Made by a program: the position numbers and the translations under genes
In this document: in pieces, positions 1,126 to 59,106 of the stretch
How positions within the stretch are numbered: position 1 is the first letter of the stretch
Layout: each line of letters opens with the position of its first letter
From: Myxococcales bacterium
GTDB lineage: Bacteria > Myxococcota_A > Polyangia > Polyangiales > Ga0077539
Assembly: GCA_016792845.1 (NCBI GenBank)
Contig: JAEUKH010000018.1
Span: forward strand, 138,984 to 202,983
DNA: 64,000 nucleotides
Direction: 5' to 3'
The notes under the pieces: generated by a model
Database searches by the model: none
What the model saw: the letters and a program-made list of their open reading frames with translations, nothing else
Told to the model about the DNA's origin: nothing

Positions 1126-1176
1126 TGTTCACAACGTCAACATTGAATGTTGACAGCGTTTACATCGGCCGAGATT

Positions 1177-1836
1177 TCAGGCGCCGGGTCGCGAGAGCGT
1201 CCAATGGCGGTCGCTGGTCATTGAGACGGTGACGTCGACGAGCCCAGCGCGGTCGCATGCGGCGCGCACCTCGTCGACGGTCAGGGCCGCGCCGAGCGAG
1301 GCCCGAAAGAGCGCCTGCCCCGTCGCGTCTTCGTCTCGGGCCCACCGCGCCACGAGGGCCTCGACGGCCTCGACGCTCTCGGGGCGGGCGAGGTCGCGCA
1401 CGAAGAGCGCCGCGGTCTCACCGGCGACGTAGGCGAGGGCATCGAAGAAGCGCGCCACGTCAGCGACATGGTGAACGAGGCTGTTCGACATCACCGCGTC
1501 GAAAGACCCTGGGGCGAAGGGCAGCGCCTTGGTGTCGGCGTGCACGAGCGAGACCCGCCCGTCGAGACCCGCCGCCGCGATGTTTCGCCGCGCCACGTCG
1601 AGCATCGCGGGCGAGAGGTCGACCCCGGTGACCGACAGGCCCGACACCCGGGCCGCGAGCGCCACCGCGATCTGCCCCGTGCCCACCCCGAGGTCGAGCA
1701 CCCTCCGGGGCCGCGCCGCGCACGACAAGAAGTCGTCGACGAAGCGCGCGTTGACGGCCCTGTGATCGATCGCGTCGTAGGCGAGGGCCTCGGCGGGGTC
1801 ATCCATCGATTCGGGTTCGAGTACGCGGTCGAGCAC
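1177..1836 (-). CDS. Class I SAM-dependent methyltransferase
   Basis: Motif I VLDLGVGTGQIAVALA. About 219 aa, a typical small methyltransferase. Confidence 0.7.
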   Translation of the reverse strand: MLDRVLEPESMDDPAEALAYDAIDHRAVNARFVDDFLSCAARPRRVLDLGVGTGQIAVALAARVSGLSVTGVDLSPAMLDVARRNIAAAGLDGRVSLVHADTKALPFAPGSFDAVMSNSLVHHVADVARFFDALAYVAGETAALFVRDLARPESVEAVEALVARWARDEDATGQALFRASLGAALTVDEVRAACDRAGLVDVTVSMTSDRHWTLSRPGA

Positions 1837-1874
1837 AGCCTCGCGAGGCTATCGGCCCCGCAGCGCGCGCGCAA

Positions 1875-4408: not shown

Positions 4409-4689
4409 CGGAGCGTCAACCTTCGCCTGCCCGGCCTGTTTGCCCCGCCCACCGTGCGAGGCGAGGCCGCCCTTGCGCCCGGCGAGGCGGGCTTTTTCGC
4501 TGTCCCACTCGTGGCCGGTGCCCTTCTCGTGGCTCGCGCGGCCGCCCTTCGAGGCGATGGCCTTCTGCCGCGCCGGATCCATCGCCGCAAAGCCCCGCCG
4601 CGCCTTCTTGCGTACAGGCACCGCGGCGCCCGCGTCGACGCCCCCGAGGGCCATGTTGTCGTGCTCGTCTCTTGCGTTGTGCGCCATTG
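4400..4689 (-). CDS. KGG-repeat general stress protein (YciG-like)
   Basis: Repeated GRKGG/ASHGG motifs (KGG stress-induced repeat). Start placed at MAHNARDEHD. Confidence 0.6.
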
Positions 4690-4933
4690 GGCTCCCTCTC
4701 TCGGGCACGGCCCCGCCGGTGCCGCCCGACGAGGGCGCGCCCCCCGACGTCGACACCCACGGGCAACGTGCGTAGAGGGTTTGTACACCCCGCACTCCCA
4801 ACGGCAAGTGCTCCTCGGGGTGCACTTTTTGAGTACACGACCGAGATCAGTGATTGGGCCGGGGCCCACTTGTAGAGGGTTTGAACAAGTCCTGAGCGTG
4901 GCCCTCTGACCGGGCCGCGCGGGGGGTCGCGCG

Positions 4934-6301
<1,368 letters not shown>

Positions 6302-6386
6302 CTGTGCGGCGCGGAGGGTAGAGCCTTTTCGCCCGCGCCGAAAGACCTCTCTTGCACCCGCTTTCGACCGGTCGCAGGCTCACCCC

Positions 6387-7271
6387 GTGAGCTTCTCAAC
6401 GCCCCTCATTTCGGTCGAAGCGTTGTCTACCCTGGCCGCCTCACCGCGGCTCCGGTTGATCGACCTCCGGTGGCATCTCAACGGCCCGAGCGGCGCCGAT
6501 TTGTACGCCCGCGGCCACCTCGACGGGGCCGTCTTTGTCGACCTCGAAGCCGCCCTCACGGCCCCCGTGGGCCCCGGGCGACACCCCATCGCCAGCCGCG
6601 CCCAGTTTGAGCGGGCCATGCGCGCGGCGGGCGTCTCGAACGACACGACGGTGGTGGTCTACGACGACGCCGGCGGCAGCGTCGCGTCTCGGCTCTGGTG
6701 GCTCTTGCGATACTACGGGCACACCGAGGTCGCGGTGCTCGACGGCGGCCTCGCCCGCTACGAGGCCCTCGGCGGCGCGCTCAGCACCCGCGCCACGGCG
6801 CCCGAGCCCGGCAGCTTCGTGGCGAAGCCCGGGGCCATGCCCGTGGTCTCGGCCCTCACCGTCGAGGCTCGGGCCGCCGAGCCCGAGGGGGCGCTCCTCC
6901 TCGACGCCCGCGCGCCCGAGCGGTACCGCGGCGAGGTCGAACCCGTCGACGCCCGGGCGGGGCACATCCCCTCGGCCCGCAACGCCTTCTGGCAGTGGCA
7001 CCTCGACGGCGCGGTGTTTCGCAGCCGAGAGGCCCTCGCGGCCCACTTCGCCGCCCTCGGGGTCACCCCCTCGCGCGAGGTGATCGCCTACTGCGGCAGC
7101 GGCGTCACCGCCTCACAGCTCATCTTGGCCCTCACCTACGCAATGCCCTCCCTCACCGTCTCGCTCTACGAAGGCAGCTGGAGCGACTGGTGCCGCGACC
7201 CCTCGCGCCCCATCGCCACCGGCGAGGCCCCGGGGCAGCTCTGGCCATCAAGCCCATCGCCCCGCTGTTGA
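6387..7271 (+). CDS. Tandem-rhodanese sulfurtransferase (thiosulfate/3-mercaptopyruvate type)
   Basis: Two rhodanese modules. Active-site loop CGSGVTAS near the C-terminus. Confidence 0.75.
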   Translation: MSFSTPLISVEALSTLAASPRLRLIDLRWHLNGPSGADLYARGHLDGAVFVDLEAALTAPVGPGRHPIASRAQFERAMRAAGVSNDTTVVVYDDAGGSVASRLWWLLRYYGHTEVAVLDGGLARYEALGGALSTRATAPEPGSFVAKPGAMPVVSALTVEARAAEPEGALLLDARAPERYRGEVEPVDARAGHIPSARNAFWQWHLDGAVFRSREALAAHFAALGVTPSREVIAYCGSGVTASQLILALTYAMPSLTVSLYEGSWSDWCRDPSRPIATGEAPGQLWPSSPSPRC

Positions 7272-7555
7272 ACGGTGTTCAACACGCCCCTCGCATCGCC
7301 TTGTTGAACAGTGTTCAACACGCCCCCCATCGGCGCCACAACCACACTCGCAGCGCTTCGTTGAGCGGCGCTCAACACGATCACCGCGGAGAGGCGGCAC
7401 GCTGTTGAACAGCGCTCAACAGCGAGGCCCGATGACGCTTCGGCGCCCGCGGAGTGTGCGGCGGTCGCGCGACCGGCGGCCCTCACGGGTCGGGGGTCAC
7501 ACGCAGACGCTGTAGCGATTCTCTGGGGCGAGGAGGCTGTTGAACAGTGTTCAAC
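7267..7555. repeat. Array of five 17-bp palindromes GTTGAAC-N3-GTTCAAC in a convergent intergenic region
   Basis: Copies at about 7267, 7303, 7360 (GTTGAGCGGCGCTCAAC), 7404 and 7539. Spacing is irregular (34-126 bp). Confidence 0.85.
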
Positions 7556-7576
7556 ACGGCGGGGCGCCGAGGGCGC

Positions 7577-10773: not shown

Positions 10774-11003
10774 GTTGAACACTGTTCAACACGCGCCTGG
10801 CCGCGTCTTCGCGTCACCCTCGTCGCCCAGATGCGCGCCGTTCGAGGCGGCCTCGGCGCCGCAAGTTGAACACTGTTCAACACGCCCGCGCGCCGCGCTG
10901 ACGCCCCGCCGACGGCATCGCCGGACGCCTGCCCAGGCGCCGCACCGCGCCCCGAGGCCCGAACGATGAACGCTGTTCGGCGCCGTGTTGAACAGTGATC
11001 AAC
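10774..11003. repeat. Array of three or four GTTGAAC-N3-GTTCAAC palindromes in a convergent intergenic region
   Basis: Copies at about 10774, 10865 and 10987 (GTTGAACAGTGATCAAC), plus a degenerate copy near 10965 (GATGAACGCTGTTCGG). Confidence 0.85.
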
Positions 11004-12101: not shown

Positions 12102-12160
12102 CGTGGGCGGCTCTGGGCATAACGTGAACGGGCCGAGAGGCGTGAGCTTTTGGCAGCTTT

Positions 12161-22289: not shown

Positions 22290-23234
22290 ATGAAAGCCCT
22301 CGAGCTCTCTGACCGCGAGCGCAGCCTCTGCCTCTCGGCGATGGCCACGCTCATGCGCCACGACGGCGCCGTACACCCGAAGGAGCGCGAGCTCTTCGAC
22401 GCCGTCTCTCACGCCCTCGGGCGCGCGACGCCCTTCGACGATGTTGACACTGTCAACATTGACACGATCGCGGCCGAGGTGACAGACCCCGAGAAGCGCG
22501 AGCGGCTCGTGCAGCTCTTGATCGTGACGGCGCTATTTGACGGCGACGTCACGGCGGGCGAGCTGGCGTTTTTGCGGGCGTGGTCAGAGGCCCTCTCGGT
22601 CGACGAGCCGCGCATGGGCACGCTCTCACGTTGGGCCCACGGGCTGTCGTCGCTCACGCAGTTTGACCTCGGGTTTCGCTCGGCGATGCTCGACCGGATC
22701 CGGCGAGACACCTGGGCCCGCGACGGCGTCTCGGGGCTGCGTCACCTTTACGGCAGCCTCTTCGGGATGGGGGCCGAAGACCCGGGCCTCGCGGCGCGCT
22801 TTGACGCGCTCGGGGCGCTGCCCGAGGGCACCTTGGGGCGGGTCTACCACGAGCATTTGCGGGCCCGCGGGTTCAGCTTTCCGGGCGAGCGCGGGGTCAC
22901 GATGCCGAAGCAGCTGGTGGCCCACGATCTCTCGCATGTGTTGGGCGGGTATGACACCGACGCGGGGGGCGAGACCGAGGTGATCGCCTTTGTGGCGGGC
23001 TTCATCTCGACCGACCCGTTCTGGTACGTGTTCGCGATTTTGATGCACATGCACCTCGGCACGCGGGTGTTCGGCCTCGACCCCACGGCCCACCTCGCCG
23101 CCGACGCCCACAAGATGGTGGCGGCCCTGCGCCGCGGGATGCGCGTCAATCGCGACCTCTACCACGACTGGGACTACTGGCCCGCCTTCGCCGAGCCCCT
23201 CGAGGCCGTGAGGGCTTCGCTCAACATCGTGTAG
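22290..23234 (+). CDS. Hypothetical protein with a TerB-like N-terminal domain
   Basis: Helical N-terminus resembling the TerB / DjlA-N fold. It carries a GTTGAC-type palindrome at 22441 in frame (DVDTVNID). Confidence 0.35.
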   Translation: MKALELSDRERSLCLSAMATLMRHDGAVHPKERELFDAVSHALGRATPFDDVDTVNIDTIAAEVTDPEKRERLVQLLIVTALFDGDVTAGELAFLRAWSEALSVDEPRMGTLSRWAHGLSSLTQFDLGFRSAMLDRIRRDTWARDGVSGLRHLYGSLFGMGAEDPGLAARFDALGALPEGTLGRVYHEHLRARGFSFPGERGVTMPKQLVAHDLSHVLGGYDTDAGGETEVIAFVAGFISTDPFWYVFAILMHMHLGTRVFGLDPTAHLAADAHKMVAALRRGMRVNRDLYHDWDYWPAFAEPLEAVRASLNIV

Positions 23235-23248: not shown

Positions 23249-24454
23249 ATGCTGAGCTACGAAGAAGCCCTCGCGCGCATGGTCGCCGAGGCCCACCCGG
23301 TCGACCGCGAGCGCGTGCCCTTTGCGAGCATCGCGGGGCGCGTGCTGGCGCACCCGCTGACGGCCCGCGAAGACCTCCCGCCCTTCGATTACAGCGCGAT
23401 GGACGGCTACGCCCTCGATCACCGCGCGGCCCTCGCCCCTGGCGCCGCGCTGCCGGTGGCGGGGGCGCGTCGGGCGGGTGACCCTCCGGGAGAGGCCCTC
23501 GCGCGAGGCCAGAGCGTACGCATCTTCACCGGCGCCCCGTTGCCGCCCGGAGCCGACGCGGTGGTGATGCAAGAAGAGGCGCTCCGGGAGGGTGACACGG
23601 TTCGCTTCACCCGCGCGGTTCACGCCGGGCAGCACGTTCGTCGCCGCGGTGAAGACCTCGTCGCGGGCGCGCAGGCCTTGCCCGCTGGGGCGCGGGTGTC
23701 GCCCTGGCAGGTGGCCCTCGGCGCGAGCTGCGACCGGGCCGAGGTCGAGGTGTTTCGGCACGTCAGGGTGGGCCTCGTCCTCACGGGCGATGAGCTGCGC
23801 GCGCCCGGCTCGGAGCCCCGCCCCGGGAGCGTGGTGAACTCGATCGGCCCCGCGCTCGAAGCCTGGCTCTGCGCCCTCGACGCGCGGGTCAGCGTCAACG
23901 GCCCCTATGTTGACGATGTGAACATCATCGCCGACGCGATCGGCGCGGCGGTCGCGCAGAACGACCTGGTGATCACCGTCGGCGGCGTCTCGGTGGGCGA
24001 TCACGACCCGGTGAAGCCTGCCTTGGTCGCCGCGGGGGTCGCCCTCGATTTCTGGAAGGTGGCCATCAAGCCCGGCAAGCCGCTCTGTTACGGCCGCGCG
24101 TCGGGCGCGAAGCGGGTCTTGGGGCTGCCGGGCAACCCGGCCTCGGCGCTCTTGACCTTCGGCCTCTTCGGCGTTCCGGTGTTGCGGGCCATGGCGGGGT
24201 TGTCGAGGCCCGAGACGCCGACCGCGCGCGCGCGGCTGGCCGGCACCTTTCGTCGGAGCCCCGGGCGCACAGAGTTTGTGCGTGTGCGCACACGCGAAGA
24301 CGGGCGCGTCGAGGTGCTGTCGAACCAATCTTCAGGCGCGGCGACGAGCTTCGCGTGGGGCGACGCGGTGATGGTGGTCGCGCTCGAGACCGCGGTGATC
24401 GAAGACGGCGCTGAGGTGACGGTGATGCCGCTCGACGCCTGGCGCCGCGGTTAG
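23249..24454 (+). CDS. moeA: Molybdopterin molybdenumtransferase MoeA
   Basis: Typical MoeA N-terminus (LSYEEALARM...), GGVSVGDHD motif, 401 aa. Confidence 0.85.
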   Translation: MLSYEEALARMVAEAHPVDRERVPFASIAGRVLAHPLTAREDLPPFDYSAMDGYALDHRAALAPGAALPVAGARRAGDPPGEALARGQSVRIFTGAPLPPGADAVVMQEEALREGDTVRFTRAVHAGQHVRRRGEDLVAGAQALPAGARVSPWQVALGASCDRAEVEVFRHVRVGLVLTGDELRAPGSEPRPGSVVNSIGPALEAWLCALDARVSVNGPYVDDVNIIADAIGAAVAQNDLVITVGGVSVGDHDPVKPALVAAGVALDFWKVAIKPGKPLCYGRASGAKRVLGLPGNPASALLTFGLFGVPVLRAMAGLSRPETPTARARLAGTFRRSPGRTEFVRVRTREDGRVEVLSNQSSGAATSFAWGDAVMVVALETAVIEDGAEVTVMPLDAWRRG

Positions 24455-36210: not shown

Positions 36211-37380
36211 TCAGGGCTCGCGCTGCACGAACAGCGACCACACCAGCGCGTCTTGGGTGTCTGTGGTGAAGACCGTGGGGCCCTCGCTCGGGCAGAGCCT
36301 GAGCCCGGCGACGTTCTCGTGCATGGGCACCTCGGTCTCGCCCCCAGAGGCCCGATCGTAGCGGGCCAGGCGCGCCCTGAGACCGACCGCGTGACGCACA
36401 AACCCCAAGCGCACGCAGCCGCGCCCGAGCTGCCGCGGGTCGACCACCGCGAGCACCCGCGAGAACGCGCGGTCGCCCGTCTGCACCACCGCGTCGTGCA
36501 CCGGCGGGAGCGTCTGCCCTCGCGACGCCTGCTGCTCGACGATCGAGAACTCCAACGGGAGGCCCGTCGTAAACCACGCGCCCGGCACCACCTCGGGCTC
36601 GACTCGCGGGTGAACCGGCTCGTCGTCGCGCTGTTGAACACTGTTCAACAGGGCGCGGTAAGTGACCGCGGTCGAAGGCACGAGCCGCGCAGCCCCGGGC
36701 CGGAGAGGCAGCGCGAGCCCCCCCACCGAGGGCCCCTCAAGGCTCGCCGCGCGGTCGAGCGCAGCCCCTTCGCCGAGGCCCACAAGCCCCTCGGGCGAGA
36801 AGGTGCCGCGGTTGAGCGCCGCAACACCGCCGACCTCGGCGCTCGGACCGCGGAGCACCGTCACGATCGCCGTGCCGCCGCGCACCGGCGGGGGCAGCAT
36901 CGGCGAGAGGTTGCGGGTCTCGAGCACCATCACGAGCTCGGCCGGCGCGTGGGTGCACCACTGGAGCTGCCCCGTGACGCCCATGGGTTCGCGGGCCACC
37001 ACCAAGGCAGGAGGCATCACGCTCACACGCTCGGCGCCCTCGGCGCGGTGTTGCAGCCCGAGGCGCTCGATGCGGTGATACCCGTGAACCGAGACCACCA
37101 CGGCCGCGCAGGTCTCGGCCCCGAGGCTCAGGGTGTACGACGCGTGACCCCGCGCGCCCGCGTCGGCTTCGAGCACCGGGAGCGTCACCTCGACGGGCTC
37201 GCGCATCCCCAAAGCCCGGGCCACCGCCACCTCGGTGTTGTGGACCCGCCGCGCGAGCGCCTCGGCCACCGGCGGCGCGTTTTCGGGAGGGTGCCGCGCC
37301 CGCGTCGCCGTCGCGTACATCAGCGCCACGATGGCCGAAAAGAACGCGCTGAGCACCCACAACACCGCCCGCAGAGACAT
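36211..37380 (-). CDS. Membrane-anchored hypothetical protein
   Basis: N-terminal TM. An in-frame palindrome at 36633 encodes LLNSVQQ. Confidence 0.4.
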   Translation of the reverse strand: MSLRAVLWVLSAFFSAIVALMYATATRARHPPENAPPVAEALARRVHNTEVAVARALGMREPVEVTLPVLEADAGARGHASYTLSLGAETCAAVVVSVHGYHRIERLGLQHRAEGAERVSVMPPALVVAREPMGVTGQLQWCTHAPAELVMVLETRNLSPMLPPPVRGGTAIVTVLRGPSAEVGGVAALNRGTFSPEGLVGLGEGAALDRAASLEGPSVGGLALPLRPGAARLVPSTAVTYRALLNSVQQRDDEPVHPRVEPEVVPGAWFTTGLPLEFSIVEQQASRGQTLPPVHDAVVQTGDRAFSRVLAVVDPRQLGRGCVRLGFVRHAVGLRARLARYDRASGGETEVPMHENVAGLRLCPSEGPTVFTTDTQDALVWSLFVQREP

Positions 37381-37522: not shown

Positions 37523-38758
37523 ATGCGAGCGCGCGCTACGGCTTTGATGACTCTCTCGACGGCCCTCTGGGTCGCCTCGTCGCCCGCAGCGGCTCAGCTC
37601 ACGGGCGGGCGTATCGGCGGCTCCAACTGGGGCGCCGCGCGGCCCTCGCGCACCGTCCAGGCGAGGCCCTCGGTGATGCCGTCGTTCGGTGCGCCGACGC
37701 CGAGGCCGGCCCCCGCCCCCGCGCCGACGGTGCAGCTGCCGGGGCTCCCGGCGGTGGCTCCGAACCCCGCCGCGATGCCGGGGATCGCCGTCGTCACGCC
37801 GCGGGTCGAGGTGCCAGCGGCGCCGCTCCCTCGCCTCGCGGTGAGCGCGTATGTCGCCCCGCCTCCGCACCCGGGGTATGTGCTCTACGCTCCCGGGGGT
37901 CGCACCCTTGAGCCCGACGAGGCGCAAGCGACGCACCCCCTCTGGCCGATGCACGACACCTACGGCCCGCTGAACCTCCTGGGCGGCGCGGTGGTCTTTG
38001 TGGGTCTCTTCGGCGCGCTCGGGGTCGGCGCCTGGGTGCTCACCCGGGCTCAGGGCGCAGCGCCGTCGCCCTCGCCGCCGTCCATTCCCCACGCTCCTGC
38101 GGGGCTCCCGGTGTCGCTCGGCCGGGTCTCGCTCGCGTTCGACGCCTCGCTCCGCGCGCACCTCCAGGCTGAGCTCGCGCGCTTCGCCGCGCAGGCGTCG
38201 TCGTCGTCACCTGAGGCCCTCGAGCGCACGACGCGGCAGGCCATCGACCTCCTCGGCAGCGCCCTCGGGGCGGCGCGGGCCGCCGCGGTGGCGAGCGCGC
38301 AGAGCCGCGTCGACGAGGCCGAGCGGCGCTTCACCGGGCTCGCCGATTCGCTGCGGCAGCGGTACACCGTCGAGAGCATCACCGAGGCCCGACGGGTGGT
38401 GATGCCGGGCCTCTCGCCCCTCGCCGACGAGGGTCAAGGCTTCGTGGTGGTGTCGCTCCTCGTCGCTGTTGAAACCCCGGATCTTGAAGCCCCCGCAGAG
38501 TTGAACACTGTTCAACTTGGGGCGTGGTTGCGCGCGCTGCGACCGCGGGCCGGGGGGCTCCTCGCGACGGAGCTCATCTGGTCACCGGCCGACCCTGGCG
38601 ATCTCATGTCATCGGCCGAGATGCTGCACCTCTACCCCGAGCTTCGCCCGCTCGAAGGGGCGACGCTCGGGCGCGTGGTGTGCGGGCACTGCCGGGCGGT
38701 GTTCGCCGCCGAGTTGGGGCGCTGTCAGCGTTGCGGCGCGGCGCCCGCCCAAGCCTGA
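37523..38758 (+). CDS. DUF1517-like exported protein with a C-terminal zinc ribbon
   Basis: Signal peptide then GGRIGGSNWG. C-terminal C-x2-C-x12-C-x2-C. An in-frame palindrome at 38500 encodes ELNTVQL. Confidence 0.4.
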   Translation: MRARATALMTLSTALWVASSPAAAQLTGGRIGGSNWGAARPSRTVQARPSVMPSFGAPTPRPAPAPAPTVQLPGLPAVAPNPAAMPGIAVVTPRVEVPAAPLPRLAVSAYVAPPPHPGYVLYAPGGRTLEPDEAQATHPLWPMHDTYGPLNLLGGAVVFVGLFGALGVGAWVLTRAQGAAPSPSPPSIPHAPAGLPVSLGRVSLAFDASLRAHLQAELARFAAQASSSSPEALERTTRQAIDLLGSALGAARAAAVASAQSRVDEAERRFTGLADSLRQRYTVESITEARRVVMPGLSPLADEGQGFVVVSLLVAVETPDLEAPAELNTVQLGAWLRALRPRAGGLLATELIWSPADPGDLMSSAEMLHLYPELRPLEGATLGRVVCGHCRAVFAAELGRCQRCGAAPAQA

Positions 38759-45998: not shown

Positions 45999-47831
45999 AT
46001 GAAGCGTCGGTCAATTGCCGCCACCGTGCGGACAGGATCAGTGTACGCTGTTGCGCTCGCGACAGCTCTCGGGGCCCGTTCGGGTCTCGCCCAACCCATC
46101 ACCCCGACGGCGACGCAGACGAGCCCTGCGACCCCCGCGCAGACGGGCACCGACCCGGGCACGACCTCGGGCGCCACGACGCCCGCGGGCGGCTCGAACA
46201 GCGCCCAGGGCTTCGCGCCTCCGAACCTCGGGCAGACGGCCCCGCAAGACCCCGGCCCGCAGCCGCAGGCGGGCGCTCCGGCGGTTCAGCCTGTGCGTAT
46301 GGAGGCCCCGGTGGCCCGCACGGCGCCGGCGACGTCGGCCCGCCCGTCGACGCCCCACGATTTCATCGACACCCGCATCACCTGGACGTTCGGTGACGAC
46401 GACATCTTGACCTCGACGGGTCAGCGGGTGCCCGTCTCGCCGCTCCCGCGGATCGCCGACCGACAGCAGTACCAGCTCTTCTTCGACGCGCTGAACTCGC
46501 GCTTCGCGGGCCGTGAGAACCTCACGCACCTCGCGATGTACGCGCGGGCTCCGGGCTTCATCGACCGGCTGACCACCGAGGCGGGCTTGATCCTCCGTGT
46601 CGACCTCGGCCAGTTGACCACGGGCTCGGGCAACTTGAACCAGGCCTTCTACGACGCGGGCACGTTCTTGCGTGTGGCCTACGGGCTGAACCCTTCGCGG
46701 GCCTCGGACCAGGTGTCGCTGACCTTCTTCCCCTTCGACACTGACCGCTTTCGGCTCGGGTATCTTTGGGATCTCTCATGGGGCGGCAACGACGTCTTCC
46801 CGCGCCGCGTGGGCCCCGCCCCGGGCCTGAAGCTTCAGCTCGACATCGGCGGGCTGCAGCTCTGGACGGGCTTCAAGACCGCCGGCATCGTGGTGCCCCT
46901 TGAGGTGGTCACGCAGTCGCGCGACATCGAGATCGTGCGCGTCGAAGAGACCCAGTATGCGGCCCTCGCGGGCGGCGCGTACCGCTTCAACGAGAACGTC
47001 AGGTTTGACGTCTCGGGCGGGTACTTTCAGCAGGGTCGCTTCGACTTCCCCGGGGTGCGCGGGCAACAGGTCTACCTCGTCGGCGGCAGCGCGCGGCTGG
47101 TGTTCTCGCAGGGCCTCAGCGCGGGCCAGTCGCTCGACATGCGGCTCTACCGCAACGACCCGACGACGCCCTTCCAGGCCTTCACCCCCGAGACCTACAC
47201 CCCCGGCCGCGTCTTGTGGAACGTGTCTCTCGAAGGCACCGCCATCGGTCAGAACCTGGCCGACATCAACTTCCCCGGGCGTACGGCGATCCAGACGGGC
47301 TTCGCGGGGGCGCTCCAAGCCCGCCTCAAGGCTGGCTACTTCGGCGCGGGCTTCACGGCCCTCTACCGCGACGTGCCCTTCCTCCTCCGCAACGTGCCGA
47401 GCTTCATCCCCTTCCAGACCTTGCCCACCGACGCGACGGTCGACCCTGAGTTCTTCCTCGCCGCGCAGGTCGACTACGCCTTCGTGCGTCAGCATCTCAT
47501 CCCGAGCTTGATCGTGGGCATGCAGCTCCCGGCCTCGTTCTCGAGCTCGGTGCGCGAGGGCTCCCTCGAATCCGAGCGCACGCTCGTGATTCGCCGCGCG
47601 GGCAACTTCTCGATCCTCCCGCCGGGCGAGGGCCGCGTACCGATCATCTCGGCCCGCGCCTCGATGCGCTGGGATCTCTCGACCGTCCTCGCGGGCATCT
47701 TCTGGGTGCAGTACGTGCTCGACCAGAACGCCACGCTCCTCCAGGTCGACTCGTCGGGTACGCGCCAGGTGCGTATCTTCCAAGCGGCCAATCAGCTCGG
47801 CTTCGGCATCACCGCGCAAGCCCGCTTCTGA
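45999..47831 (+). CDS. Outer-membrane beta-barrel protein
   Basis: Signal peptide, alternating amphipathic strands, and a C-terminal ...GFGITAQARF with terminal Phe. Confidence 0.5.
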   Translation: MKRRSIAATVRTGSVYAVALATALGARSGLAQPITPTATQTSPATPAQTGTDPGTTSGATTPAGGSNSAQGFAPPNLGQTAPQDPGPQPQAGAPAVQPVRMEAPVARTAPATSARPSTPHDFIDTRITWTFGDDDILTSTGQRVPVSPLPRIADRQQYQLFFDALNSRFAGRENLTHLAMYARAPGFIDRLTTEAGLILRVDLGQLTTGSGNLNQAFYDAGTFLRVAYGLNPSRASDQVSLTFFPFDTDRFRLGYLWDLSWGGNDVFPRRVGPAPGLKLQLDIGGLQLWTGFKTAGIVVPLEVVTQSRDIEIVRVEETQYAALAGGAYRFNENVRFDVSGGYFQQGRFDFPGVRGQQVYLVGGSARLVFSQGLSAGQSLDMRLYRNDPTTPFQAFTPETYTPGRVLWNVSLEGTAIGQNLADINFPGRTAIQTGFAGALQARLKAGYFGAGFTALYRDVPFLLRNVPSFIPFQTLPTDATVDPEFFLAAQVDYAFVRQHLIPSLIVGMQLPASFSSSVREGSLESERTLVIRRAGNFSILPPGEGRVPIISARASMRWDLSTVLAGIFWVQYVLDQNATLLQVDSSGTRQVRIFQAANQLGFGITAQARF

Positions 47832-48399
47832 GCGGCAGTTCAGCCAAACCCAGCGCCGCGTCTTCGAGCACCTCTGCCGCGTCGCCGACGCCCTCCATCG
47901 AGAGCGCCGCGACGCCGTGGCAGTGCGCCCAGAGCGCCATCGCGCGCCCCCGCACCTGCCCCGTCGAGGCCAGCCCATCAACCGCCGCGAGCGCCACCAC
48001 GAAGCGCTCGAACGCGTCGTGGGCCCGGTTCGGCGCACGCCCCGCGGGCGCGAACATCACCGCGTAGAGACCCCGATGGAGCCGCGCGAAGCCCACGTAC
48101 GCCGCGCACACCGCGACGAGCTGGGCGCGGGCCGCGACGGCCTCGGCGCGGGCGCCATCGAGCCGCTCGACGAGGCGCGCGAAGCCCTCCTCTCGCACCG
48201 CCCCGAGGAGCCCCTCACGGTCAATGAAGTGGTGGTACGCCGCGGCCGGAGCGACCCCCGCCTCGCGGCACACCGCGCGCAGCGACAGCGCCGCCGAGGG
48301 GCCCGATTCGAGCATCGCCAGGGCCGTGCCCATGAGGGTCGCGCGGAGGTCGCCGTGGTGTTGCCCCACCCTCCGCGGGGGGCGCTTTCGCTTCGCCAT
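47809..48399 (-). CDS. TetR/AcrR-family transcriptional regulator
   Basis: N-terminal HTH LRAVCREAGVAPAAAYHHF. 196 aa. Confidence 0.8.
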   Translation of the reverse strand: MAKRKRPPRRVGQHHGDLRATLMGTALAMLESGPSAALSLRAVCREAGVAPAAAYHHFIDREGLLGAVREEGFARLVERLDGARAEAVAARAQLVAVCAAYVGFARLHRGLYAVMFAPAGRAPNRAHDAFERFVVALAAVDGLASTGQVRGRAMALWAHCHGVAALSMEGVGDAAEVLEDAALGLAELPLRSGLAR

Positions 48400-48445
48400 G
48401 TCTGGTGGTCGCAGCCTAGCCCGGCCCGCGCCCGCCGTGAACCGT

Positions 48446-48606
48446 GTTGAACAGCGTTCAACAGCGCCGAGGGCATCGAAGGGGCCGACCCGCGCTCAGC
48501 CCGGCCGAGGGTTGTCTGTCATGTTGAACAGCGTTCAACGGTGAACCCTGCGCGTGTTGAACAGTGTTCAACTTCGCCCCTGTGTGCGTGTTGAGCGGTG
48601 TTCAAC
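48446..48606. repeat. Array of four GTTGAAC-N3-GTTCAAC palindromes directly upstream of the TetR gene
   Basis: Copies at about 48446, 48523, 48556 and 48590 (GTTGAGCGGTGTTCAAC). Flanking GTGAACC motifs at about 48438 and 48541. Confidence 0.85.
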
Positions 48607-49389: not shown

Positions 49390-49423
49390 GCGGAGCGCGG
49401 CGCGGCGTGGTACGAGCGAGGGC

Positions 49424-50731
49424 GTGAGTCTTCCGCTGGTTGTTGCGATCCAGAAGGCGCTCGGCGAGGCGCCCGGCCACCCTGCCCTCGTCGACGATGC
49501 GCTGCGGGCGGTGTTCAGCTTCCAGCTCCACGCGCCGCAGCTGACCGACGACCCGCGCGCGCGGGCCGCGCCGCACGCGGTGCTCCACGAGATGCTCACC
49601 CACCTCGCCGCGGGCCCGTGGCACGCGCGCTTTGTCGCCCTTGAGTTGAACAGTGTTCAACACGAGGCCCTGGTCATCGCGGGCTTCGCCGCCGCGTCGC
49701 TGCCCGAGGTCGAGTGGCTCATCAAGCAGAACTGGCGGGTCACCGAGGGGCTCCTCGCGGCCCGCGACGACGCCCCCGAAGCGCTGCTGGCGCTGGCCGA
49801 GCGGCTGCGCGGCAAGCCCGCCGAGAACCCCGCACTCTTGACGGCGCTGGGTCGCCTCGCGGTGATCGCCGACGGCCTCGAAGACGCGCTCACGTTGGCG
49901 AATTGTAGCCTCGCCGCGACGGCCGAGCGCGCCTTCACGGCCCTCGGCCCGACCCGCACCGCGCGGGTGGTCGAGCGGGTGCTCGCGCGCTTCGACCACA
50001 CGCCCGAGTTTCGCAGCCAGAGCCTCATCCCGATGCTCGAACGGGTCGGGCCCTGGCTCAACGCCCGCGCCCTCGACGCCGTGCTGACCCGGGCCGAGCT
50101 CCTCTCGAACACCTACCTCGCATGGGAAGATTGGGGCCAACGCCTCGGCCAGAACGCCGACACGCGCTTCGTCCTCGGGGCCGTCGCGGCCCGCATCGCC
50201 CAGCACGACGACCCGGGGCTCCGCGACGGGTGGCGCCGGGCCGCGCGCATGTTGCTCGACCGCGCGACGCACCGCGGGTTTGTGCCCTCGCCCGACGACG
50301 ACGTGTTCATCGACCCCGCGGGCGCGGCGCGCGGCAACGACGACGTGTGGATGGCCACCCGGAGGCTCCTCAACGCCATCGGCCCGACCCGCGCCGAGGC
50401 CGTGCTGACGGCAGCCTTCGCGGGCTACCGCGCCCCCTGCGAGGCCCTCCGCTTCGCCGTGAGCGGCATGTCGCCGGGCTACCTCTCTCGGGTCGCCGAG
50501 GCCATGGTGGCCGTGCGCGACGACCCTGCCTTCTCAGACCTCCTGGCCATCAGCGACCTCAAGCCCTTCGGCCCCGGGTTCGTCGACGCGCTCATCGAGG
50601 CCCTGCGCGACCTCCGTCCGCGCCGCGCCTTTGTGAAGCACCTTGAGCGCAACCTCAGCGTCGGCGACTACAACCGCCTCTCGATCTGGCTTGAGACGCG
50701 CCCGCCGCCCAAACGCCCCCGCGCGCCGTGA
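49424..50731 (+). CDS. Hypothetical helical-repeat protein
   Basis: 435-aa ORF with ordinary composition. An in-frame palindrome at 49644 encodes ELNSVQH. Confidence 0.4.
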   Translation: MSLPLVVAIQKALGEAPGHPALVDDALRAVFSFQLHAPQLTDDPRARAAPHAVLHEMLTHLAAGPWHARFVALELNSVQHEALVIAGFAAASLPEVEWLIKQNWRVTEGLLAARDDAPEALLALAERLRGKPAENPALLTALGRLAVIADGLEDALTLANCSLAATAERAFTALGPTRTARVVERVLARFDHTPEFRSQSLIPMLERVGPWLNARALDAVLTRAELLSNTYLAWEDWGQRLGQNADTRFVLGAVAARIAQHDDPGLRDGWRRAARMLLDRATHRGFVPSPDDDVFIDPAGAARGNDDVWMATRRLLNAIGPTRAEAVLTAAFAGYRAPCEALRFAVSGMSPGYLSRVAEAMVAVRDDPAFSDLLAISDLKPFGPGFVDALIEALRDLRPRRAFVKHLERNLSVGDYNRLSIWLETRPPPKRPRAP

Positions 50732-50794
50732 GCGCCCTGTTGAACAGTGTTCAACAGTGGGTGAAATTCGGGGGCGCAGCGGGTGCGGCGCGGG

Positions 50795-52600
<1,806 letters not shown>

Positions 52601-52648
52601 GCGATGTACTCCTCGGCGCGCGGTTGCCCCCAACGACGGGTCAAACGC

Positions 52649-55078: not shown

Positions 55079-55229
55079 GGAGTCAACCACTTTCTGTGTC
55101 ACTGTCGAAGTTGTCGTTGTCGGCCCCGGAGGGTGGGCAATCGGCCACAAGTACGGGCCCCGCGCCTCTGCGATTCAGACCCGCATCGGGCGCCCTGACC
55201 TCACCCCTGGCGCGCCGCGGGGCGTGCCC

Positions 55230-56243: not shown

Positions 56244-56313
56244 CGTGGCTCGACTGCGTAAAGGTATCGCCCCCCGAGTGTCAACGCCTTACGCGACACC
56301 CGGCCCCACTTGA

Positions 56314-56949
56314 TTGCATGATCTGCCCCCACGAGACCCGATGATGCAGCGCGCCGAAACCACCCTCGAACGCCTCCGAAGGCTCGCCCCGTGGGCCCTC
56401 GGGGCCCTCGCCTTGAGCCTGTCTCAGCCTGCCGAAGCCACGGTGTTTCGTGCCATCTCGCTCGATGAGATGGCGCGCCGGGCCGACGCCGTAGCGGTGC
56501 TCATGGGGCCCCCAGACACCGCCGCCGCGTCAAGAAGTTACTGGCTCGGGCGGCGCATCGTGACCGAGCAGACGCTCACCGTGGTGGGCGTGCTGGCTGA
56601 CCGAACGGGGCTGCTTCGACAGGCCTCGGGGCCCTTGGTCTTGACGATTCCGGGTGGGCGTGTAGGGCCGCATGTGCAGACTGTGGCGGGCGCCCCCGAG
56701 CCGCGCCCCAACGCGGTACAGACCGTGTTCTTGCAGCGCCTCCGCGACGGCCGTTGGGTCGTCTACGACATGGCCTTGGGGCTCCTGCCGATGCGCCCCG
56801 ACGGCCGCGGCGGCTGGTGGGTCTCGCCGCCCGACACCCGCGGCATCGAGCGCGTCGACGGCGACACCGGCGCGGCGCCGCTCGCGATGCCCGCCGAGGG
56901 CCTGAGCCTCACCGCGCTCCAGGGCCGCATCGAGCGAGCCGCACCGTGA
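56314..56949 (+). CDS. Secreted hypothetical protein, partner of the matrixin (paralogue of 13972..14508)
   Basis: Signal peptide. Similar to 13972..14508 (A.VF.AISLDEMARRADAVAVL vs AIVVAPIGLSALTQQSDDVVLGTV). GTGA overlap with the matrixin. Confidence 0.5.
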   Translation: MHDLPPRDPMMQRAETTLERLRRLAPWALGALALSLSQPAEATVFRAISLDEMARRADAVAVLMGPPDTAAASRSYWLGRRIVTEQTLTVVGVLADRTGLLRQASGPLVLTIPGGRVGPHVQTVAGAPEPRPNAVQTVFLQRLRDGRWVVYDMALGLLPMRPDGRGGWWVSPPDTRGIERVDGDTGAAPLAMPAEGLSLTALQGRIERAAP

Positions 56950-57818
56950 GCGCCGCGCCGCCCTCGTCGCGCTCGGGCCCCCTCGCCCTCGGCCTCGCGG
57001 CCCTCGCGCTGCTCACCGACGCGCACGGGTACTGCCGCACCACCACGTCGCCGGCGCAGCCCGACCCCACCGTGTGCCCCGCCCGCGGCGTGCCCATCGC
57101 CTGGCCCACCCGCTGCGGCGCCATGCGGCTCTCGCCCATCGAGCGCCCCCCGAACCTCGATTGGAGCGTCGTCCAGAGCGCGACCCGCGACGCCGCCGCG
57201 GCGTGGCGCGGTATCGACTGCGGCGGCGGCCGACCCTCAGGCTTCGACCTCGAGATCCTCGGCGACGTCGCCGCCGCCGCCGGCTACAATGTTGACGGTG
57301 TCAACATCAACAGCATCAACTTTCTGTCTCGTTGGGCTGACGACGCGTTTCACCCGCCCGACGCGGCGGCGGTGACCATCGTCACCTTCGGCGCGATGTC
57401 GGCCAGCATCCTCGACACCGACACCGACCTGAACCTCGCCGACTTTCGCTTCGTGGTGGGCGCCGACCGCACCGGCGCTGACTTGCAGACCATCCTCGGG
57501 CACGAGATGGGGCACGCGTTGGGGCTCGCCCACAGCCCCGATCGCCTCTCGGTGATGTGGTACGCCGTCGGTCGCGGCGAGCAGCGGCGCGCCCCAACGA
57601 GCGACGACGTCGCGGGCCTCTGCGCGGTGTATCCGCCGCGGCCGCGCGAGGCGTGCGACCCCGAGATTCGTCGCGAGACCTTCTACGGCGGCGGGTTGCC
57701 GCTGGCCTGCACGAGCGGGCCCCGCGGGGGCGGGTCGGGGGGCGCTGCGGTGTGCCTCGGCGCGGCGCTCTGGCTCTCGGCGCGGCGACGGCGCGCGGCG
57801 CTCAGCGGGCGGCGATGA
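56946..57818 (+). CDS. Matrixin-family zinc metalloprotease (M10) with a MYXO-CTERM-like tail
   Basis: HEMGHALGLAHS motif. C-terminal GGGSGGAAVCLGAALWLSARRRR. Carries a GTTGAC-type palindrome at 57289 (NVDGVNI). Confidence 0.75.
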   Translation: MSAAPPSSRSGPLALGLAALALLTDAHGYCRTTTSPAQPDPTVCPARGVPIAWPTRCGAMRLSPIERPPNLDWSVVQSATRDAAAAWRGIDCGGGRPSGFDLEILGDVAAAAGYNVDGVNINSINFLSRWADDAFHPPDAAAVTIVTFGAMSASILDTDTDLNLADFRFVVGADRTGADLQTILGHEMGHALGLAHSPDRLSVMWYAVGRGEQRRAPTSDDVAGLCAVYPPRPREACDPEIRRETFYGGGLPLACTSGPRGGGSGGAAVCLGAALWLSARRRRAALSGRR

Positions 57819-59106
57819 GGATGATCTCGACCGCTGCGAGGAGCGCCACCGAGCGGTCAGGGTCGAGCAGGAGCGGCGCGATGGGGTCGCAGTCGGTGCC
57901 GCCTCCGAGGGCCTCGGGCCAGGCCATCACCGCCATGCGCCGTACGCTCGGATCGGGCGCGCGAAGAGCCCGCCGCAGGGGCTCAAGGGTGCTCGGGTCG
58001 CCGCGCTGCGCGAGGGTCGCGAGGGCGCGAACGGCCACAAACCCGTCGAGGCTCGCAGACAGGCGGCGCAGCACCTCGGCGGCCCGCCCGCGGTGCTCAG
58101 GCTGACGGAGCAGCGTCGCCGCCACGCGGAGCGCGACCTCGGGGTCGGGGCTCTCGAGCGCCAGCGCCAGCCCGTCGGCGTGCGAGCCCGCGAGCATCGC
58201 GCTCGTCACCGCGGCTTGGGCGCGAAGCTCGCGGCGCCCTGCCGACATCGCGCGGAGCAAGAACGCACCCGCGGCCTCGTCGTGATGCGACGCGAGCACC
58301 CGCGCGCACTCGATGTTGACACTGTTTACATCGCCCGTCGCGAGCTGCTCGCGGAGCGCGACCTCTGCGGCCTCGGCATCGACGGCGAACCAAGCCGACG
58401 CGACGGCGAGCCGCATGCTCGGGTCGCCTTGTTGGAAGAGCGCGGCGAGGGTCGGGGCGGCGTCGGCGCCGTAGCTGCCGAGGGTGCTCGCGGCGCCGAG
58501 GCGCGCGACGCGGTTGGGGTCTTCGAGGGCGATCTGGCGCACGGCGGCGAGGGCCCTGGGGTGCCGGTGGCTCCGCGCGAGCTCGTAGAGGGCCGCCTGA
58601 CGGAGCTGCGGGTCTTCGCTCTGGAGCCACCCGATGAGGGTCTCTCGGCCGCGTCGGCCGCGGAGGCTGGCCATGCCCGCGACCCGGCGCTCGCGGTCGT
58701 CGCTGGCGGCGGCGTCGCGGAGGCGGCGCGGGGGGTCGCCGTCGCGTCGCTCCATTTCGTACCGCGTCGAGGCGGCGCGATCGCCCACCACGTCGGGCCG
58801 TCGGGCGAGCTCATCGAGGAGGTCGAAGGCGCGCACGCCGAGGCCGCGGAGGGCTGAGAAGCATGCGCTCCGCGCGCTCTCATCGCGGCTGCCGCATTGG
58901 GCCTTGAGGCTCGCCAGGGCGATCTCAGCGACGAGGTCTGGGTCGCCCTCGCCGCGGGTCTCGACGAAGCTCCGATACGCCACCAGGGCTTCGTGAATCT
59001 GCGCGCTGCGGGCGTAGCTCCGTACGGGGCTGACGCCGCTGGCGCAGTGCGCGGCGGCCGACATCACCAAGGCAACGACCCACCGACGGCGCGACGCGAG
59101 AGGCAC
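57802..59106 (-). CDS. HEAT-repeat protein
   Basis: Multiple PxxRxxAxxAL HEAT-like repeats. Confidence 0.55.
   Translation of the reverse strand: MPLASRRRWVVALVMSAAAHCASGVSPVRSYARSAQIHEALVAYRSFVETRGEGDPDLVAEIALASLKAQCGSRDESARSACFSALRGLGVRAFDLLDELARRPDVVGDRAASTRYEMERRDGDPPRRLRDAAASDDRERRVAGMASLRGRRGRETLIGWLQSEDPQLRQAALYELARSHRHPRALAAVRQIALEDPNRVARLGAASTLGSYGADAAPTLAALFQQGDPSMRLAVASAWFAVDAEAAEVALREQLATGDVNSVNIECARVLASHHDEAAGAFLLRAMSAGRRELRAQAAVTSAMLAGSHADGLALALESPDPEVALRVAATLLRQPEHRGRAAEVLRRLSASLDGFVAVRALATLAQRGDPSTLEPLRRALRAPDPSVRRMAVMAWPEALGGGTDCDPIAPLLLDPDRSVALLAAVEIILIAAR

Follow-up and report, generated by a model that had tools for sequence, protein, structure and literature searches.

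Why would a short palindrome recur along a housekeeping chromosome, at a promoter, between the ends of genes and inside them, and which protein would bind it? We examined this question in a 64-kb stretch of DNA (the window; 91% coding, JNK72_06180–06490) of a metagenome-assembled genome that NCBI lists as "Myxococcales bacterium"; unless another source is named, the counts given here cover this window.

Over-representation and constraint of the family 1 palindrome

The preliminary description reported an excess of the palindrome GTTGAAC-N3-GTTCAAC (GTTGAACNNNGTTCAAC), and our counts bear this out. We found 13 exact matches against 0.00 expected from 100 dinucleotide shuffles, and 17 copies at up to two mismatches against 0.07 expected in shuffle controls of the 64-kb window. 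These 17 copies, here termed family 1, lie within 43 kb, and their density is one site per 3.8 kb. The extended form held up as well: the complete site is a 19-bp odd-centred palindrome, T-GTTGAAC-A-S-T-GTTCAAC-A, with the outer T…A present in 24 of 34 half-sites. Outside these 19 bp, the flanks of the 17 copies are not conserved and carry no sequence information.

The spacer between the arms was exactly 3 bp in 17/17 copies. All 12 deviations from the consensus fell at positions 6, 8, 10 and 12, with none at the other 12 arm positions. Since the deviations are limited to 4 of 16 positions, the remaining positions are probably under purifying selection, and such position-specific constraint is the pattern that would be expected of selected protein-binding sites. 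Both mismatching and compensating changes occur among the variants, and copy 7360 carries double changes that are symmetric. Decayed relics are scarce, with only 3 further matches at 3 mismatches, 2 of them within arrays. Single half-sites were not enriched outside the full sites (3 GTTCAAC and 1 GTTGAAC against about 4 expected), so the full palindrome is the unit of family 1.

Furthermore, independent short-read assemblies from several metagenomes reproduced the sites at 99.7–100% identity, and the sites are therefore not assembly artefacts. The strain variants (99.7% identical) are too alike to gauge constraint on the sites.

Placement of the family 1 copies

The placement of family 1 is non-random. 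Four copies are located at a TetR promoter, nine in three convergent intergenic regions and four in genes, which agrees with the earlier account: copies form arrays between genes, or lie at gene ends, in one promoter region or within coding sequence. The features are the following.

First half of the window:
7267..7555, unstranded: array of five family 1 copies (7267, 7303, 7360, 7404, 7539) in a convergent intergenic region
10774..11003, unstranded: array of three family 1 copies (10774, 10865, 10987) in a convergent intergenic region
Second half of the window:
35110..35126, unstranded: family 1 copy in ORF 34442-35809 (+), codon 223, V-L-N-S-V-Q-L
36633..36649, unstranded: family 1 copy in gene 36211-37380 (-), codon 244, L-L-N-S-V-Q-Q
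38500..38516, unstranded: family 1 copy in DUF1517 gene 37523-38758 (+), codon 326, E-L-N-T-V-Q-L
47809..48399, minus strand: TetR-family regulator gene (MBL8601538.1, 196 aa), TetR_N + TetR_C_33/WHG, proposed family 1 binder
48446..48606, unstranded: four family 1 copies (48446, 48523, 48556, 48590) upstream of the TetR gene, in a divergent intergenic region
49645..49661, unstranded: family 1 copy in the 435-aa gene 49424-50731 (+), codon 74, E-L-N-S-V-Q-H
50739..50755, unstranded: family 1 copy in a 63-bp convergent gap between the 435-aa gene (end 50731) and dnaK (50795-52633 -)

In this largely coding window, 13 of the 17 copies are intergenic; 13 of the 17 also lie away from the promoter. 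The nine copies at convergent gene ends occupy 3 of the 12 convergent intergenic regions, and none was found in the 36 co-directional regions.

The four copies upstream of the TetR gene have start-to-start spacings of 77, 33 and 34 bp and lie 46-207 bp upstream of the start codon of the 196-aa protein, with a degenerate copy at 48436 overlapping the set. We presume that they are autoregulatory operators.

The five-copy array fills the 305-bp gap between a rhodanese gene (6387-7271 +) and a GDP-mannose pyrophosphorylase gene (7577-8668 -), and the TGA within copy 7267 is the stop codon of the rhodanese gene. The left flanks within this array are related and show growth by local duplication. We looked for a promoter, a terminator or a credible ORF inside the array (7267..7555) and found none. 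The three-copy array is located in a 245-bp gap between the gene for a 643-aa membrane/PDZ protein (8842-10773 +) and a rhomboid gene (11019-12221 -); its first copy begins directly after the stop codon of the membrane/PDZ protein gene, and a decayed copy lies at 10965. The last base of the copy next to dnaK is polymorphic in two strains.

All four in-gene copies are read in the same frame, as L-N-S/T-V-Q. Copy 36633 aligned without gaps to LYPFFVG, and copy 38500 to GHDLASL, of the respective Polyangiales homologs.

Probable link of family 1 to a TetR-family regulator

The preliminary description proposed the adjacent TetR-family protein as a candidate binder, and comparison with other genomes strongly supports this proposal. 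The protein matches PF00440 TetR_N (3e-9) and PF13305 TetR_C_33 (1.6e-12); among solved structures, the TetR-family protein 3on2 is closest to it. An alternative gene call gives 174 aa with the start at 48333. Operators of the tetO type are 19-bp palindromes with a central base, located in the regulator's own divergent promoter.

A search of related genomes for the motif had been suggested, and this comparison found the palindrome in the promoter regions of five other TetR genes, carried by unrelated genomes, and a variant with the same core in a sixth. The four closest TetR homologs (39–47% identity) each have one or two palindromes between the TetR gene and a divergent gene of the metallo-β-lactamase fold, Lactamase_B in 4/4. 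In L043 and L019, the TetR homologs are preceded by the exact 17-mer at a distance of 26-50 bp, and L082 and L083 have one-mismatch and two-copy versions between their TetR and Lactamase_B genes. A distant Paenibacillus TetR gene (L021) has the exact 17-mer 30 bp upstream. The core-conserved variant (P0005, L215) is TCTGAAC-ATC-GTTCAGA, with the inner core and spacing of family 1. Both L083 operator copies vary at positions 6, 8 and 12, those of L082 and L215 at other positions.

The recognition-helix region (…YHHF) is common to the window protein and the motif-bearing homologs. In the Streptomyces TetR homologs, the recognition helix differs and the promoter region lacks the palindrome. Taken together, co-occurrence in six genomes strongly supports family 1 as the predicted operator of the TetR_C_33/WHG-type regulator at 47809-48399.

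This comparison also indicates that, in related genomes, members of this TetR clade act as ordinary local repressors with one or two operators and a divergent metallo-beta-lactamase-fold gene. The Lactamase_B partner gene is absent from beside the window TetR gene. The sequences thus indicate that the operator of a single TetR switch has been multiplied here to 17 copies, with the partner gene no longer adjacent. The nearest Polyangiales relative had 0 family 1 copies in the 21 kb compared, and the JGI metagenomes searched held no array comparable to those of family 1; on this evidence the amplification is lineage-specific.

A second palindrome family

About nine looser GTTGAC...GTCAAC palindromes had also been reported. 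The family itself is real, and its count needed revision. We found 3 exact matches of GTTGAC-N1-9-GTCAAC in the window and 15 matches of GTTGACNNNGTCAAC at up to two mismatches, against 1.4 expected. Four of these 15 (754–903) belong to a coding repeat of 27 bp that is translated as PPADTGNVT; several of the others, weak matches with two mismatches, misfit the extended pattern. Redefined as the 19-bp AT-GTTGAC-N3-GTCAAC-AT, family 2 has 6 copies at up to three mismatches, against 0.01 expected, with starts at 1125, 1147, 22441, 23907, 57289 and 58313. A palindrome at 4404 was left out, as it has N5 spacing and a different sequence.

1125..1165, unstranded: two adjoining family 2 palindromes (ATGTTCACAACGTCAACAT, ATGTTGACAGCGTTTACAT) in a 51-bp convergent intergenic region
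22441..22459, unstranded: exact family 2 palindrome ATGTTGACACTGTCAACAT in TerB-like gene 22290-23234 (+), D-V-D-T-V-N-I
23907..23925, unstranded: family 2 copy with 1 mismatch in moeA 23249-24454 (+), Y-V-D-D-V-N-I
57289..57307, unstranded: exact family 2 palindrome ATGTTGACGGTGTCAACAT in M10 peptidase gene 56946-57818 (+), N-V-D-G-V-N-I
58313..58331, unstranded: family 2 copy with 2 mismatches in HEAT-repeat gene 57802-59064 (-), D-V-N-S-V-N-I

The 51-bp region is flanked by a lipoprotein-like gene (559-1125 +) and a methyltransferase gene (1177-1806 -). Upstream of the lipoprotein-like gene, a ParA-like fragment (3-548) matches AAA_31/CbiA. The four in-gene copies are always in the same reading frame, and the moeA copy aligned without gaps to E. 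coli MoeA. Judging from this copy and the two family 1 copies compared, in-gene copies apparently arose as substitutions, not insertions.

Family 2 is a second palindrome of the family 1 design with a similar odd placement, and the two families alternate along the window. Since family 2 is placed like family 1 and has no regulator nearby, it hints at a genome-wide process or system and not at the quirk of one repressor.

Possible roles of the multiplied sites

We regard as moderately probable a joint explanation in which a TetR operator was multiplied, the non-promoter copies act as roadblocks or insulators and as a sink, and family 2 has a separate binder. Most of the multiplied copies lie between the ends of genes, and some within genes; control of one promoter is therefore probably not the repressor's only task. 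The sites have increased by two routes: local tandem duplication in the convergent intergenic regions and the TetR promoter, and base substitution that wrote a site into coding sequence in the least costly frame (L-N-S/T-V-Q). TetR dimers would occupy all family 1 copies until released by ligand binding, and the promoter-proximal copies would provide cooperative autoregulation. At gene ends and in genes, the non-promoter copies might then form protein roadblocks or insulators that respond to the ligand, and might simultaneously buffer free repressor as a sink. Family 2 would be bound by a different protein encoded outside the window.

Regarding the roadblocks, the sequence itself gives no sign that transcription stops at the arrays, and a roadblock would not need as many as five copies between two genes. 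As for the sink, intergenic DNA would be a cheaper place for it, which leaves the four in-gene copies poorly explained.

A tentative alternative, which we consider possible but doubtful, is that the TetR protein, with a second protein for family 2, was recruited as a site-specific nucleoid protein. The palindromes would mark a domain or set up higher-order structure, and the arrays would nucleate multi-dimer complexes. SlmA is such a protein with a TetR fold, and Noc and MatP are other site-specific nucleoid proteins. Most family 1 copies lie away from promoters (13/17), their outer positions are strictly conserved, the two related families alternate, and the TetR locus no longer has its ancestral target gene. 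Moreover, copies were written into genes by substitution in a fixed frame, as in architecture-imparting sequences; parS, NBS, matS and KOPS are typically written into coding sequence. However, the TetR protein is not an SlmA orthologue (NCBIfam NF007015, 19 bits against a cutoff of 120), the site density and the tandem arrays are far above the known SBS, NBS and matS sets, and the GC skew across the window shows neither an ori nor a ter switch. With similar reserve, the two orthogonal 19-bp palindromes could be described as chromosomal address sites in alternating clusters every 5-12 kb, placed in convergent regions and in frame in genes, with family 1 bound by a re-purposed TetR and family 2 by another partner. 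If true, this would be a previously undescribed TetR-based chromosome-organising or transcription-insulating system. It would share its logic with SlmA/SBS or Noc/NBS, having arisen independently of them out of an ordinary local repressor. A ParB/parS system was rejected: parS centromeres are even palindromes of 16 bp (TGTTNCACGTGNAACA type) accompanied by a ParB gene, the family 1 site has 19 bp, an odd centre and another sequence, and no ParBc-domain protein is found in the window.

Neutral or selfish spread by a DNA-level process (hairpin-promoted slippage, template switching, short-patch gene conversion) is unlikely. Copies would be kept where they do little harm, with no function beyond the original operator. 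The local duplication in arrays with related flanks fits such spread, as do the symmetric double changes in copy 7360, which template switching would give, and the concentration of copies between convergent genes, where DNA is least constrained and where tolerated repeats such as REP/BIME also gather. On the other hand, no conserved flank, target-site duplication or transposase/RAYT was found in the window, in-gene copies take the place of equally long stretches and keep the frame, substitution at only 4/16 positions indicates purifying selection on the rest, and there are nearly no decayed relics. The earlier suggestion of a miniature mobile element is likewise not supported: a MITE or IS terminal repeat was rejected, as nothing internal is conserved beyond the 19-bp palindrome and in-gene copies add no length compared with homologs. 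A transposase or RAYT (IS200/IS605-like Y1) was sought among the about 60 genes of the window, and none was found.

An RNA-level or DNA-structure element is very improbable, whether as cruciforms or as hairpins at convergent gene ends that terminate transcription in both directions or stabilise mRNA. Nine copies do lie between convergent gene ends, and each can form a stem of 7-9 bp with a loop of 1-3 nt. However, these stems are weak and AT-rich (-6.8 to -9.2 kcal/mol for most copies) and lack a T-tract, like sequence occurs in TetR promoters of six genomes, variants mismatch as well as compensate, and an Rfam search gave no match. An intrinsic (rho-independent) terminator was rejected, with no stable G+C-rich stem and no site called terminator-like. 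The lack of conserved flanks and transposase, the unenriched half-sites and the weak hairpin thus argue against the MITE/REP, uptake-sequence and terminator readings. That the motif is a DNA uptake sequence in inverted pairs, like the Neisseria DUS pairs at terminators, as had also been raised, is hardly credible: DUS/USS likewise show over-representation, a preferred frame in genes and inverted pairs at gene ends, but uptake sequences are mostly single whereas single half-sites are at chance here, the 3-bp spacing is fixed, and in other phyla the motif accompanies TetR genes.

Comparison with known systems

The multiplied TetR operator that we favour is closest to TetR/tetO repressors. The window protein has TetR_N and a TetR C-terminal domain. 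Here, as in five to six homologous loci, the 19-bp odd-centred site is found in the promoter of the regulator itself, usually opposite a divergent enzyme gene. The window differs in its 17 copies in 43 kb against the usual one or two, in the 13 non-promoter copies in convergent arrays or in frame in four genes, and in the missing divergent target gene.

SlmA/SBS, which acts in nucleoid occlusion in E. coli, likewise combines a TetR-fold protein with a palindromic site in many mostly non-promoter copies, some in genes. The SBS is the 12-mer GTGAGTACTCAC; the window site differs in sequence and length, its local density is much higher with tandem arrays, and the protein is no orthologue.

REP/BIME elements with RAYT share the short palindromes, the arrays and the strong preference for convergent gene ends. 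However, the window copies lack a GTAG head, a conserved flank and a RAYT in the window, and REPs are strictly extragenic whereas four family 1 and four family 2 copies lie in genes, the tested family 1 copies being indel-free. Cyanobacterial copies of the identical 17-mer do look REP-like, with GTAGGG-…-CCCTAC and conserved flanks.

Neisseria DUS and Haemophilus USS share a large excess over chance, a preferred frame in genes and inverted pairs at gene ends; the window unit differs in being the whole palindrome with fixed spacing and unenriched single arms.

Cluster A mycobacteriophage stoperators and the phiC31 repressor inverted repeats also occur as many near-identical, mostly non-promoter copies over tens of kb, and for stoperators the roadblock mechanism is established. 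Those sites belong to phage genomes, whereas the window is a housekeeping chromosome with no phage genes. A phage repressor operator set was rejected on this gene content and on a megablast against 50,697 phage records without a match; viral-contig matches to the motif are single copies. Stoperators are asymmetric and oriented, and the window sites are symmetric.

Over-representation and shape of the family-1 palindrome

We counted matches to the family-1 palindrome (GTTGAAC-N3-GTTCAAC, a 17-mer; TGTTGAACASTGTTCAACA) in the 64-kb window, where G+C is ~70% throughout, and found 13 exact matches to GTTGAACNNNGTTCAAC, compared with 0.00 expected from 100 dinucleotide-preserving shuffles. At ≤2 mismatches there were 17 copies (0.07 expected), or one site per 3.8 kb within the window. 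The strong over-representation claimed in the preliminary description was thus borne out. The 667 bp beyond the window edge contained no family-1 copies. The sites were reproduced at 99.7-100% identity in short-read assemblies from several independent metagenomes, indicating that they are not assembly artefacts.

The symmetrised logo (n = 17 copies) revealed a 19-bp palindrome, T-GTTGAAC-A-S-T-GTTCAAC-A, with zero information beyond it, and no longer common element was found when all copies were aligned with 30-bp flanks. The unit is the entire palindrome; single half-sites occur in the window at chance level (4 observed, ~4 expected). Family-1 copies are under position-specific constraint. 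All deviations from the consensus (12/12) fall at positions 6, 8, 10 and 12, while the remaining 12 arm positions are invariant (P~6x10^-5, calculated within the positions used to define the sites). Decayed copies are scarce, with three extra matches at three mismatches, two of them within arrays.

Two positions were polymorphic among assemblies. At position 48532 (position 10 of copy 48523) the window has C where five other assemblies have T, the consensus base, and at position 50755 (the last base of copy 50739) it has C where two metagenome assemblies have T. Between these variants, which are 99.7-100% identical, one SNP is toward the consensus and one away, too few to inform on constraint.

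Genomic setting and placement of the sites

Pfam annotation of the ~60 window genes (JNK72_06180 to 06490, proteins MBL8601493-MBL8601554) showed an ordinary chromosome, with genes for phosphomannomutase, rhodanese, GDP-mannose pyrophosphorylase, rhomboid, an ECF sigma factor, RseP, moaC/moaE/moeA, CarD, recA, cinA, YbeY, dnaK-grpE, IF3 and tRNA-Val. Only one TetR gene was found, and no transposase, integrase, RAYT or phage gene. Megablast of 30-50 kb of the window against phage and plasmid collections returned no near-identical record. The lineage is isolated: for two window proteins, identity to the best non-self homolog is only 45-47%.

Palindromes of the window by location
Divergent region upstream of the TetR gene (47809-48399, minus strand): 4 family-1 copies
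Three convergent intergenic regions: 9 family-1 copies (5, 3 and 1)
36 co-directional intergenic regions: 0 family-1 copies
Inside genes: 4 family-1 copies
1125-1165, convergent region: two adjacent family-2 copies
22441, 23907, 57289 and 58313, inside genes: family-2 copies, all read V-D/N-x-V-N-I

On the curated gene map, 13 of the 17 family-1 copies are intergenic although the window is 91% coding (P~3x10^-11, treating copies as independent). When they were counted as eight independent loci, the intergenic bias persisted (P=0.003), as did the bias toward convergent regions (P~10^-4; Fisher test on 3/12 versus 1/47, P=0.02). Most copies are located away from promoters. Neighbours within arrays have related left flanks (for example, 7290-7322 and 7347-7379 are 79% identical over 33 nt), indicating that the arrays grew via local duplication. 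We searched the convergent arrays for hidden genes and promoters, and found neither sites resembling promoters or terminators nor any credible small ORF; Rfam matched only tRNA-Val in the window and nothing in the arrays.

The four in-gene copies all read L-N-S/T-V-Q (4/4), with TGA present in a second frame. Copy 7267 supplies the stop of the rhodanese gene, which ends on the TGA within the motif, and copy 10774 starts directly past the stop codon of its gene. Two in-gene peptides were aligned with Polyangiales homologs, and both alignments were gapless: ELNTVQL against GHDLASL (homolog 45% identical) and LLNSVQQ against LYPFFVG (33% identical). These two copies therefore came about through base substitution at poorly conserved places and not through an insertion. 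The sites are placed in ORFs at a codon-usage cost. A related Polyangiales locus had no family-1 copy in 21 kb at ≤3 mismatches, and a metagenome scan for two-copy arrays revealed only five unrelated loci and no comparable array. In this lineage, family 1 has increased in number through local duplication together with in-frame substitution.

Family 1 as the putative operator of a TetR clade

The exact 17-mer was found at 72 loci in a scan that took one genome per species, the source genome not being among those representatives. At two high-GC loci (L043 and L019), a homolog of the window TetR regulator (MBL8601538.1) starts 26-50 bp from the palindrome (47% and 43% identity, tblastn). The next two closest homologs in the protein search were at L082, with one one-mismatch copy, and L083, with two copies at 1-2 mismatches, all within the short spacer that separates the TetR gene from a divergent neighbour. 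In both L083 operators, positions 6, 8 and 12 are likewise variable. The divergent partner encodes a metallo-beta-lactamase-fold protein in all four relatives, followed by GNAT in 2/4. A profile search of all loci bearing the 17-mer also identified a distant Paenibacillus TetR (L021) with an exact site 30 bp upstream.

The window protein has GVAPAAAYHHF in its recognition-helix region, where the motif-bearing homologs have GVSPGAPYHHF or GVAPAAPYHHF; Streptomyces homologs have GVSATAPYRHY there, and their promoter region is without the palindrome. The prediction that a further homolog with the YHHF helix (P0005) carries a family-1 site held in part. Its promoter has TCTGAAC-ATC-GTTCAGA 42 bp upstream, with the same inner core and spacing and different outer two bases, and a degenerate second copy 20 bp further on. 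The comparative evidence, with the palindrome in promoter regions of homologous TetR genes, upholds the earlier suggestion of the adjacent TetR protein as the first candidate binder. We conclude that family 1 is the predicted operator of the TetR_C_33 (WHG) clade, and that the ancestral protein was probably a repressor acting locally through one or two operators. The window TetR gene has no lactamase-fold partner, four operators upstream and thirteen other copies elsewhere in the window.

The TetR promoter regions at L082 (1060-1135) and L019 (5270-5345), from two unrelated MAGs, are conserved far past the operator (...GTTCAACTTGC-ATDG-CC-C-C-GGCGGCA-GTTGCG-AGATGA...). This points to a shared layout of promoter or leader within the ancestral TetR/lactamase-fold cassette.

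Other occurrences of the 17-mer

Single exact copies were found in Arthrobacter (L003/L024), Solirubrobacteraceae (L013/L041), Sandaracinaceae (L027), Dermabacter (L037), Tessaracoccus (L052) and Anaerolineales (L062), and two copies 42 bp apart in Paeniglutamicibacter (L022). In these high-GC genomes, where chance occurrence is unlikely, the 8-kb loci showed no TetR-family ORF; the palindrome may serve a different family of regulators there, or the gene may be situated outside the fetched DNA. The viral contigs among the matches listed had single copies only.

In several low-GC cyanobacterial genomes, the 17-mer forms the centre of a larger palindrome, GTAGGG-GTTGAACASTGTTCAAC-CCCTAC, found on many contigs, often with conserved flanks (...ttgggttgaatatttgg...), in a Microcystaceae MAG (L004, L034, L057, L065, L072), Geminocystis sp. 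CENA526 (L005, L009, L014, L015, L030) and an uncultured Cyanobacterium (L001, L016, L028, L042). With its classic GTAG head, it resembles a REP/MITE-type repeat; its structure differs from that of the window copies, and its context is unrelated to TetR. Methanococcoides vulcani (L020, 242-864) has three exact copies of GTTGAACAGTGTTCAAC in 620 bp, each inside a longer archaeal repeat with conserved flanks (...ctgtcgttcaatgact and ...gacgggacggaag...). Metagenome contig MRWG01003153.1 (L204, 68.8% GC) carries two copies of GTTGAACGCAGTTCAAC 53 bp apart (1737-1806) in a tandemly duplicated unit (ggaaggccgaa-site-ttcccagcc...), and a tblastn search of this contig with the window TetR gave no homolog.

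A second palindrome family

The looser GTTGAC...GTCAAC family of the preliminary description contained a genuine palindrome, but its definition also caught an unrelated coding repeat. That definition gave three exact matches and 15 at ≤2 mismatches, of which four were a 27-bp coding repeat encoding PPADTGNVT. The source of these false matches is a tandem repeat at 740-910 (six copies, PPADTGNVT / PPTDTGNVT) within gene 559-1125 (plus strand), whose protein has a lipoprotein-type signal peptide (...LALCLSACGG...). The extended 19-bp pattern, AT-GTTGAC-N3-GTCAAC-AT (family 2; ATGTTGACNNNGTCAACAT), has six copies compared with 0.01 expected. The copy in moeA aligns without gaps to E. coli MoeA, and the in-gene copies form pairs 1.0-1.5 kb apart. 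Families 1 and 2 have a common centre, ACAsTGT, with the outer TGTTG block 1 bp nearer the centre per arm in family 2. No regulator gene adjoins any family-2 copy, and the family is absent from 1.6 Mb of the other fetched loci.

Among AT-rich perfect palindromes with arms of 7 bp or longer, only families 1 and 2 recur within the window. Their clusters lie at 1.1, 7.3-11.0, 22.4-23.9, 35.1-38.5, 48.4-50.8 and 57.3-58.3 kb, in the order F2, F1, F2, F1, F1, F2, with gaps of ~4 to 11.5 kb, too few points for periodicity. A further palindrome at 4404-4420 (GTTGAC-GGAGC-GTCAAC) has N5 spacing, unlike both families, and sits precisely at the overlap of the convergent QueG-like (3356-4408, plus strand) and KGG-repeat (4400-4687, minus strand) genes.

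Interpretation of the extra copies

Positional constraint, the whole-palindrome unit, the few relics, the fixed frame, the lack of indels in the two aligned copies and the lineage specificity indicate that the extra copies are kept as sites for protein binding and were not dispersed by a mobile element. We propose that TetR dimers would occupy all family-1 copies and be released by a ligand. The four promoter copies would serve cooperative autoregulation, and the others would affect something other than initiation. The reading to which we commit is that, at gene ends and within genes, they may act as roadblocks or insulators that respond to the ligand and would also buffer free repressor. It requires no new protein activity and agrees with the bias toward convergent gene ends, given that intrinsic terminators are few in this genome. 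Five copies in a single spacer are nevertheless excessive for a roadblock, and a sink for repressor leaves the in-gene copies unexplained.

The chief rival reading is a possible address-site system like those of SlmA, Noc or MatP; the in-gene copies written in frame and the parallel behaviour of family 2 speak for it. The window TetR scores 19 bits against the 120-bit SlmA cutoff, so it is rejected as an SlmA orthologue, although this score concerns family membership and not the logic of the system. Neutral spread via hairpin-driven duplication fares worse; it accounts for the arrays and leaves the in-gene copies and the constraint pattern unexplained. Two other rivals also fare worse than address sites: terminators were rejected on weak stems, no T-tract and zero terminator-like calls, and uptake sequences failed a direct test, with half-sites at chance (4 vs ~4). 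The miniature mobile element offered in the preliminary description is rejected, given no flank conservation past 19 bp in the alignment of all copies (which also dismisses a MITE or IS end), no transposase or RAYT in the window and gapless alignments for the in-gene copies compared with homologs. Phage or plasmid origin is dismissed by the megablast result and the housekeeping gene content, and a known RNA family by Rfam.

Comparison with known systems

Functional extra sites would make the window a snapshot of a one-gene repressor turning into a multi-site chromosomal DNA-binding protein, and would show protein roadblocks or insulators at work at gene ends in an organism of high GC whose intrinsic terminators are few. 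If they are neutral, it would be a rare case in which a transcription-factor site has spread with no transposase involved. Either way, the operator assignment offers a testable DNA target for the uncharacterised TetR_C_33 (WHG) clade, which is paired with metallo-beta-lactamase-fold enzymes in several phyla.

Keyword searches found no paper containing the 17-mer and no precedent under multi-site TetR proteins or Myxococcales palindromes. SlmA presumably evolved by the same route, for which we know of no intermediates. As read from sequence, the window appears to hold a TetR operator amplified ~ten-fold and redeployed to non-promoter DNA, with a second palindrome family behaving alike. The parts, a TetR repressor and a palindromic operator, are familiar; the arrangement is what is unusual.
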